Virus record (IMG/VR): IMGVR_UViG_3300044991_001301
DNA length: 64,000 nucleotides
DNA from: a virus
Direction: 5' to 3' (one strand)
Part shown: in pieces, positions 56,302 to 57,356 of the stretch
Layout of the letters: every line of letters starts with the position of its first letter
How positions within the stretch are numbered: position 1 is the first letter of the stretch
Program-made: the position numbers and the translations under genes
The notes under the pieces: generated by a model
Told to the model about the DNA's origin: nothing
Seen by the model: the letters and a program-made list of their open reading frames with translations, nothing else
The model's database searches: none

Positions 56302-56538
56302 TCAAAAGAATGGCAATTGAGATTTTTTCGTCATATCAAGATTGTATTCTATAATGCCATTTATGTGGTCGCGCTCGGCTGAGGACATATTTAATATGTC
56401 CTCATATGATACCCCTCCCCGCATATACCAAGCCATGCTTAACGCATTCTTTTTTATTGCGATGCACTCGTTGTCATAATCATCTATCAGCTTCCCAACG
56501 CCCTCAGGGCTTAGGCGAAGAAGCCTTAACCGAAAAAA
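56302..56538 (-). CDS. gp51-like baseplate hub assembly/tail chaperone segment in the -1 frame (absent from the ORF track)
   Basis: 78 codons FFRLRLLRLSPEGVGKLIDDYDNECIAIKKNALSMAWYMRGGVSYEDILNMSSAERDHINGIIEYNLDMTKKSQLPFF; the frame opens exactly at T-TTT-TTC at the 3' end of the upstream gene. Confidence 0.7.
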   Translation of the reverse strand, partial: FFRLRLLRLSPEGVGKLIDDYDNECIAIKKNALSMAWYMRGGVSYEDILNMSSAERDHINGIIEYNLDMTKKSQLPFF

Positions 56539-57356
56539 TCAGAAGTATTCAGAATGAATTGTTGATCGTATTCGTGTTCACAGTGAATACATTTAATTTT
56601 CAATGGCTTTATTTCAGTCTGTGCTTTTAAGCTGCCATTTTGATCTCTAATAGCAGCGTACATGTTTTTATCACAATTCTTCAAGAAATCTAAAATAAAG
56701 TTTTTATCATTTACTATGGTGTCTGGCGTTTGTATACGGTCTATGGCCGACGCTAGAATATTCATTGTAAGATCGGTAATTTTTCTCAATGCTTCTTGAC
56801 CTTGAAGTGCCCGTTTTGCTTCATCACTCTCATTGTCAAGACCTGCAAACACACGTTGCAATTCAAACTGACCCAAACTGGCAGCATTCATTTCTTTATA
56901 TGTTAGTGGTCTGAAGTTAATAAGTAGTTCATTAATTTGAAAAGGTGTCTCGTAATTTCCGGATTTTAATTGAGATAAAATTCCAATTAAATTAACCCCG
57001 TAATTGGCTACTTCTGAACATTCCGGACACTGTGACTCGATTTCCATATCGCTACCACCGGCTGCCGACTTAATAGCAATAAGAATAGCATCTAAGTCAA
57101 TGCTATTGATGGACCATGGCTCTTTAATATCAGGAATGCAACTTTTTATTAGTTCAGTCATTGCCGTTCCATTAAACAGTGCATCCGGAGTCTTTGATGT
57201 TATTTCATCAATTGCCGTCATTGGATAAACTGGAACTTCACCCGATTCAGGAATAGTAACTACTCCGGGGGCATAATGTTTACCACCGCTAGGTAGTTTG
57301 AGATACACTGCTGGTCTGCGAAAATACTGTTTTAGCGGATTGTTATTCAATGACAT
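56526..57356 (-). CDS. gp26: Baseplate hub assembly protein/tail chaperone (T4 gp26-like)
   Basis: NPLKQYFRRP...LKLPSGG, PMTAIDEI, DLDAILIAIK, CPEC and CIHC, ends DFFG. Confidence 0.75.
   Translation of the reverse strand: MSLNNNPLKQYFRRPAVYLKLPSGGKHYAPGVVTIPESGEVPVYPMTAIDEITSKTPDALFNGTAMTELIKSCIPDIKEPWSINSIDLDAILIAIKSAAGGSDMEIESQCPECSEVANYGVNLIGILSQLKSGNYETPFQINELLINFRPLTYKEMNAASLGQFELQRVFAGLDNESDEAKRALQGQEALRKITDLTMNILASAIDRIQTPDTIVNDKNFILDFLKNCDKNMYAAIRDQNGSLKAQTEIKPLKIKCIHCEHEYDQQFILNTSDFFG

Follow-up and report, generated by a model that had tools for sequence, protein, structure and literature searches.

A conserved, probable −1 frameshift site in the gp26-like gene of giant T4-related phages, and the short and long putative hub-assembly chaperones that it probably yields

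Organization of the locus

The window, i.e. the whole 64,000-nt stretch of viral DNA that was analysed, carries on its minus strand a gp26-like gene (56526-57356) that was taken from the ORF list and translates into a 276-aa product followed by TAA. This product matches Pfam family PF12322 (T4_baseplate; E 2.1e-15) over profile positions 19-218 of 219, with 57.4 bits against a curated cut-off of 24.5, which is the sole Pfam match of the gene, and it also matches phrog_150, "baseplate hub" (E 1.6e-14). The 3′ end of the gene reads GAT TTT TTC GGT TAA on the minus strand, and includes in phase the slippery heptamer T TTT TTC (56532-56538, X XXY YYZ). The zero-frame stop TAA (56526-56528) is located one codon past the heptamer, while a TGA immediately 5′ of it (56539-56541) closes the −1 frame; the interval in which a shift is possible in the window is limited to TGA-heptamer-GGT-TAA. 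From the heptamer onwards the −1 frame is open for 78 codons, up to a TGA at 56304-56302, and the gp51-like extension (56302-56532, minus strand), recognized by translation, homologues and an hhalign match to the gp51 tail, consists of 76 codons plus this TGA. The predicted products are therefore one of 276 aa and one of 351 aa, the latter made of codons 1-275 and the 76 −1 codons. The first ATG of the −1 frame is codon 35 (56436), the start of a 44-aa ORF, and no Shine-Dalgarno-like purine run was found 5′ of it. On reading the sequence again, the gene end, heptamer, TGA, 78 open codons, ATG position and product sizes given in the first-pass annotation were all confirmed. Downstream of the heptamer, on the same strand, lies a bulged hairpin (56489-56525), which according to its fold and its covariation in relatives is likely to act as a frameshift stimulator.

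A tape-measure-like gene (57421-61860) starts on the plus strand, 65 nt from the gp26-like gene. Its 1479-aa product matches phrog_794 (E 2.3e-17), which confirmed the proposed divergence of the gp26-like gene from a tape-measure gene. According to Pfam, residues 1006-1070 of this protein form an SLT transglycosylase domain and residues 1281-1345 a VanY-type peptidase domain; it would thus be a tape measure bearing two cell-wall-lytic modules. Nearby genes encode a portal protein, SbcCD-like (gp46/47-like) proteins, a RusA-like resolvase and a late sigma factor, and the closest cultured relatives are the jumbo phages Atu_ph07 and Phosso and RaK2-like phages of Salmonella, Klebsiella and Erwinia. 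Because of this gene content and these relatives, the window is regarded as part of a giant T4-related phage.

Elsewhere in the window, a single ORF of 6520 codons (19425-38987, minus strand) probably encodes a giant jumbo-phage protein of the virion or fibre type; its N-terminal 1500 aa showed no Pfam match and its C-terminal 1666 aa only a sub-threshold match to E1_FCCH. An inverted repeat of 8 bp with a 5-nt loop (56237-56257, minus strand) is located about 45 nt past the stop of the extension, in the 530 nt that separate convergent genes; a T tract is missing, and a terminator scan did not pick up the repeat. No Rfam family and no tRNA were found when the whole window was scanned.

Conservation of the slip site

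The junction was compared by script across 141 IMG/VR loci, the loci of Atu_ph07, Phosso and Salmonella phage 7t3, and the window. A total of 142 loci were classifiable, and the addition of two cyanophages (P-SSM2 and S-PM2) led to 100 distinct junctions. The extension is found in the −1 frame at 138 of the 142 related loci, the remaining four being in-frame fusions, and a slippery heptamer is present at every locus with a fully readable junction (136/136). Among the distinct junctions the heptamer is T TTT TTC in 98 and A AAT TTT in two, and its phase is identical in all of them; conservation of heptamer and −1 phase in orthologues had been proposed in the first-pass annotation as a check on the frameshift. 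The two A AAT TTT sites (L063 and L064, at about 3819-3829; 31-34% identity) retain the X XXY YYZ pattern and the unchanged phase, and are followed by a stem of 7-12 bp with very different arms.

This uniformity is found among joined proteins that share 27-74% identity with that of the window and as little as 17% in pairwise comparisons among themselves. Across the 100 junctions, positions 0-7 carry 1.9-2.0 bits of information, compared to 0.1-0.7 bits at neighbouring third codon positions. The codon 5′ of the T run varies (GAT, AGT, AAT, ACT, TCT or CAT), with T as its last base in every case. The zero-frame stop follows the heptamer after one codon in 67 junctions, after three in 8, after four in 23 and after 11-12 in two; as the zero-frame tail thus differs in length among relatives, it is the stop that moves and not the heptamer. 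On the other side, the stop in the −1 frame lies 0-31 codons upstream of the heptamer. The arrangement is far beyond what chance would produce.

In the cultured phages Atu_ph07, Phosso and 7t3, the protein is 28-32% identical to that of the window, the junction reads xAT TTT TTC G and a homologous extension is present in the −1 frame; including P-SSM2 and S-PM2, the site is identical in five cultured phages. The GenBank records of Atu_ph07, Phosso and 7t3 list two unjoined CDSs, with the extensions annotated as small hypothetical proteins, and a frameshift is annotated in none of the six deposited records of slip-site carriers that were examined.

Coding signal of the −1 extension

In 84 relatives that align without gaps, the variability of the three codon positions over the first 17 −1 codons was 1.11/0.71/1.58, a pattern similar to that of the upstream zero frame (1.24/0.81/1.52). 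The −1 frame is therefore of coding type from the first codon past the slip site. Across the 100 junctions, the distance to the first ATG of this frame ranges from 1 to 37 codons and is most commonly 18, and neither an ATG nor a Shine-Dalgarno sequence for the extension is conserved across the junctions compared. An independent start for the extension was rejected on these grounds, and the view that the downstream −1 ORF has no start of its own was upheld.

A phmmer search with the extension against 1.8 billion representative proteins identified 132 relatives. Fifteen of these are natural single-ORF proteins of 319-351 aa, of which the last ~76 residues match the extension, and which align colinearly with the predicted trans-frame sequence through the junction. 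Such natural fusions suggest that a protein of the long-form type is functional in relatives. Their DNA lacks the T run, and at their junction only one Phe and the Arg are conserved; strict conservation of TTT TTC is thus not a protein constraint. On its own, the extension gave no Pfam match, and its best PHROG matches reached only E 0.036-0.046.

RNA structure downstream of the heptamer

The hairpin in the window starts at +7, i.e. 6 nt past the heptamer, and comprises 13 pairs with a 9-nt loop; MFE and centroid fold agree at −15.5 kcal/mol. Taken alone, it is no more stable than shuffled sequences (z −0.65). In most of 98 relatives the stem begins at the same position, with a mean z of −1.9. 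Pairing was quantified in 61 gap-free relatives, picked by a criterion that is independent of pairing, namely that a single codon separates the heptamer from the zero-frame stop. In these relatives the hairpin is 76.3% paired, compared to 39-52% when the partners are slid by 1-3 columns, an agreement that within the clade is inflated and partly protein-driven, as the stem arms also encode conserved Leu-Leu and Lys-Leu. The covariation score is 0.286, compared to at most 0.145 for the slid partners, and was reached by none of 500 shuffles.

In other clades the 5′ position of the stem is kept, the arms differ and the partners are located 35-75 nt away, for example GCCTAATT with AATTAGGC, or GCCTCCT with AGGAGGC. 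We regard this change of arms between clades as a stronger argument for the hairpin than the pairing within a clade. When the longest helix with its 5′ arm at +5 to +10 was searched for in the 100 junctions, its mean length was 8.07 bp and 75 junctions had at least 7 bp; shifting the search by 16 nt gave 5.07 bp (at least 7 bp in 10 junctions), and codon-shuffled sequences gave 5.26 bp.

An H-type pseudoknot had been proposed in the first-pass annotation at 56525-56499. Its bases are present in the window, but its first stem is not conserved among the 61 relatives (57% paired, with the central pair in only 6 of them), and its second stem is the inner part of the conserved bulged hairpin, by which the pseudoknot was replaced. 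No conserved Shine-Dalgarno-like element was found upstream of the slip site.

Homology with T4 gp26 and gp51

T4 gp26 (208 aa) and gp51 (249 aa) are reported as baseplate hub assembly chaperones (Leiman et al. 2010, PMC3004832, Table 2). Of the two, gp51 is needed, yet missing from the particle, and has been described as "essential, of unknown function" (PMC3004832). Both proteins span PF12322 end to end (gp26 residues 1-206, gp51 residues 1-201), and gp51 carries about 48 additional C-terminal residues beyond the domain. The match of gp26 to phrog_150 (282 positions) ends at position 235, and that of gp51 at 280. In the record of Acinetobacter phage Octan, both proteins are called "tape measure protein assembly chaperone".

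When 104 joined long forms were aligned by hhalign to 11 T4-type gp26 proteins, the probability was 95.8%, and the slip point aligned with the last residues of gp26, which ends three residues later. An alignment of the extensions matched the C-terminal 80 residues of gp51 with a probability of 88% (E 2.9e-6, score 35.3) over about 34-63 columns, while 30 column shuffles scored 7-15 and the reversed alignment 9.4. Homology to the gp51 tail became visible in hhalign only in this tail-versus-tail comparison: with the whole long form, the probability for the gp51 alignment was only 25%, over the N-terminal part, and the natural long forms against single T4 sequences gave 6.9% for gp51 and 46.8% for gp26. 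Pairwise BLASTP matches to T4 gp51 were weak (E 0.25-0.27), and the PHROG scan of the natural long forms mostly ended at the shared domain. An AlphaFold (AF2) model of a natural long form (pLDDT 86.4, pTM 0.80) predicts a tail of three helices; compared with the PDB, this model showed no clear match in Foldseek (TM ≤0.13) or VIA-align (Z ≤5.8).

The cyanophages P-SSM2 and S-PM2 possess a single PF12322 gene, which ends in T TTT TTC. Heptamer, phase and gene family of their "gp26" and "gp51" are those of the window, while they differ in being annotated as two independent genes and in an extension of about 60 aa, which is nearer to T4 gp51 than that of the window. In both phages the −1 ORF is the "gp51" of GenBank, which in S-PM2 has 57 aa; the "gp26" and "gp51" genes of S-PM2 are S-PM2p207/p208. 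The extension of P-SSM2 matches gp51 residues 200-246 in BLASTP (E 1e-6), the alignment beginning at the junction with the first residue of the extension, and matches phrog_634, "hub assembly catalyst" (E 3e-29). In the loci compared, the cyanophage extensions are located at 2184-2372 (P-SSM2, L158) and at 1691-1864 (S-PM2, L159 and L162). As far as these alignments go, the cyanophage extensions bridge the extension of the window and the gp51 tail; together with the hhalign tail match, this bridge bears out the label "gp51-like" originally given to the extension. By the same alignments, the counterpart of gp51 is the long form in its entirety, and that of gp26 the short form.

The T4 genome confirmed that genes 26 and 51 are separate, as the first-pass annotation had stated. 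Since gene 51 is on the opposite strand from gene 26, the extension is not a displaced gene 51. No slippery run is present at the end of T4 gene 26, which is directly followed by gene 25.

Number of PF12322 genes per genome

Exactly one PF12322 gene was found in each of the five complete or near-complete genomes with a slip site (Atu_ph07, 7t3 and three IMG/VR genomes of 337-360 kb). The context of the in-frame long forms was examined through IMG/VR loci, and four contigs with such a form have two adjacent PF12322 genes each: a tailless short paralogue of 305-318 aa upstream and the long form of 325-340 aa downstream. T4 likewise has two PF12322 genes, 26 and 51. Lineages thus carry either the slip site or two PF12322 genes, a pattern that is expected if both forms are needed.

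Two tandem arrangements are those of L066 (2376-4332) and L069 (9018-10912). Both combine a short paralogue with an in-frame long form and have no slip site, and their short paralogue has neither the zinc-ribbon-like C-terminal CxxC pair nor the tail. In L066, a tape-measure-like gene lies divergently upstream of the PF12322 pair. On another contig (G005, the contig of L067; 11717-13198), both PF12322 matches lie within one open frame of 678 aa, perhaps a short and a long paralogue fused in tandem.

Discussion

We propose, with a probability of about 0.9, that the gp26-like gene gives rise to a short and a long protein through a hairpin-aided −1 slip, and that these form a hub-assembly chaperone pair. 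Most ribosomes would read GAT TTT TTC GGT and then terminate, releasing the 276-aa short form. A fraction would pause at the hairpin 6 nt downstream, both Phe-tRNAs would move back by one base on U UUU UUC, and 76 further codons would be translated in the −1 frame, leading to the 351-aa long form. The PF12322 domain would be common to both forms, with the long form adding a helical tail equivalent to the C-terminal tail of gp51, and the short-to-long ratio would be fixed by the slip rate. Both forms together may act as non-virion chaperones assembling the central hub and tape-measure part of the baseplate. Slipping in vivo and its efficiency are what we infer from the conserved signals, and the chaperone role is suggested by homology with T4 gp26 and gp51. 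The programmed −1 frameshift on T TTT TTC joining gp26-like and gp51-like ORFs, as first put forward for this locus, is supported by the conservation of heptamer and phase and by the homology of the tail.

It is very unlikely that the two ORFs are separate genes, the downstream one being translated alone by internal initiation or by termination-reinitiation. Database records do annotate two CDSs, an ATG lies 1-3 codons past the heptamer in S-PM2 and a few other loci, and the usual spacing of one codon between heptamer and zero-frame stop might also suit coupling. However, the first ATG is otherwise found up to 37 codons into the frame, and at codon 35 without a Shine-Dalgarno sequence in the window, while coding-type conservation begins at the slip site, ahead of any start, and natural fusions are colinear across the junction. 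Moreover, reinitiation needs neither an invariant in-phase X XXY YYZ heptamer nor a hairpin 6 nt further on.

Slippage of the RNA polymerase, which would add or drop a base in the T6 run so that some mRNAs encode the long form, is just as improbable. A homopolymer is indeed present at the junction, the protein product would be identical, and some phage and bacterial genes use this mechanism. Efficient transcriptional slippage usually needs runs of 8-9, for which T6 is short, and the run at the junction is always of exactly six, then C, in one phase. The A AAT TTT found at two distant loci still fits tandem tRNA slippage, and together with the fixed six-T run it favours ribosomal over transcriptional slippage; the covarying hairpin at a 6-nt spacing likewise fits a ribosomal pause. 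Least credible is that the junction reflects an error in sequencing the homopolymer or the recent breakage of a gene: a single assembly with one T missing would look alike, but the same break occurs at 138 of 142 independent loci with 17-74% protein identity, and also in finished genomes of cultured phages from different sequencing platforms. Sequencing error and recent breakage were ruled out on this evidence.

A −1 frameshift in tail chaperone genes is of a known kind, and the mechanism proposed here is canonical. Xu, Hendrix and Duda reportedly described in 2004 a conserved −1 frameshift in tail assembly chaperone genes (lambda gpG/gpGT). The gp26-like gene resembles lambda G/GT in being one gene by the tape-measure gene, with a short and a C-terminally extended product predicted from an X XXY YYZ −1 slip. 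A role in tape-measure or tail-initiation assembly, with neither product in the virion, would probably be a further likeness. It differs in that the gene is on the minus strand and divergent, instead of co-directional between the tube and tape-measure genes, and in having its slip site right at the 3′ end of the short ORF, followed by a clear hairpin. Pfam, Foldseek and VIA-align revealed no kinship in sequence or fold with lambda gpG, and the fold comparisons none with any solved tail chaperone. The G/GT-style pair suggested in the first-pass annotation therefore holds as an analogy of logic only. With E. coli dnaX (tau/gamma), the locus would share a bacterial −1 heptamer slip with a downstream stem-loop and products with a common N-terminal part; in dnaX, however, the slip yields the shorter product and is helped by an upstream Shine-Dalgarno-like element, of which no conserved counterpart exists here.

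In the comparison with T4, the protein family is the same, the short form stops where gp26 ends, the tail of the long form matches that of gp51, and the gene adjoins, and is divergent from, the hub/tape-measure gene block. The difference is that T4 has two paralogous, divergently transcribed genes, whereas here one gene and a −1 slip would give both products; in addition, the extension in the window exceeds the gp51 tail by about 25 residues. A full-text literature search retrieved no report of a frameshift in the T4-type PF12322 family.

On balance, we lean towards the view that the hub/tape-measure chaperone of the T4 superfamily was originally one gene that required a −1 frameshift, and that genes 26 and 51 of T4 and the tandem pairs of a few lineages are hard-wired duplicates of its two products. 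The superfamily as understood here includes jumbo RaK2-like and Atu_ph07-like phages, cyanophages and many uncultured lineages. If this is true, gp26/gp51 would be the functional counterpart of lambda G/GT, the apparent lack of a tail-chaperone frameshift in T4-type phages would disappear, and in hundreds of deposited genomes the extension would be either overlooked or mis-annotated as a small gene in its own right. Cyanophages and jumbo phages would need re-annotation of one of their core genes, and bacterial frameshift signals could be studied on a large number of naturally occurring −1 sites whose hairpins covary. T4 gp26 and gp51 rank among the least understood T4 tail proteins, and their interpretation as the short and long forms of one chaperone offers a testable model, in which they would be a G/GT-like pair differing by a helical tail. 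T4-type tails would thereby be linked to the rule for long-tailed phages, whose tape-measure chaperone is produced in two forms.
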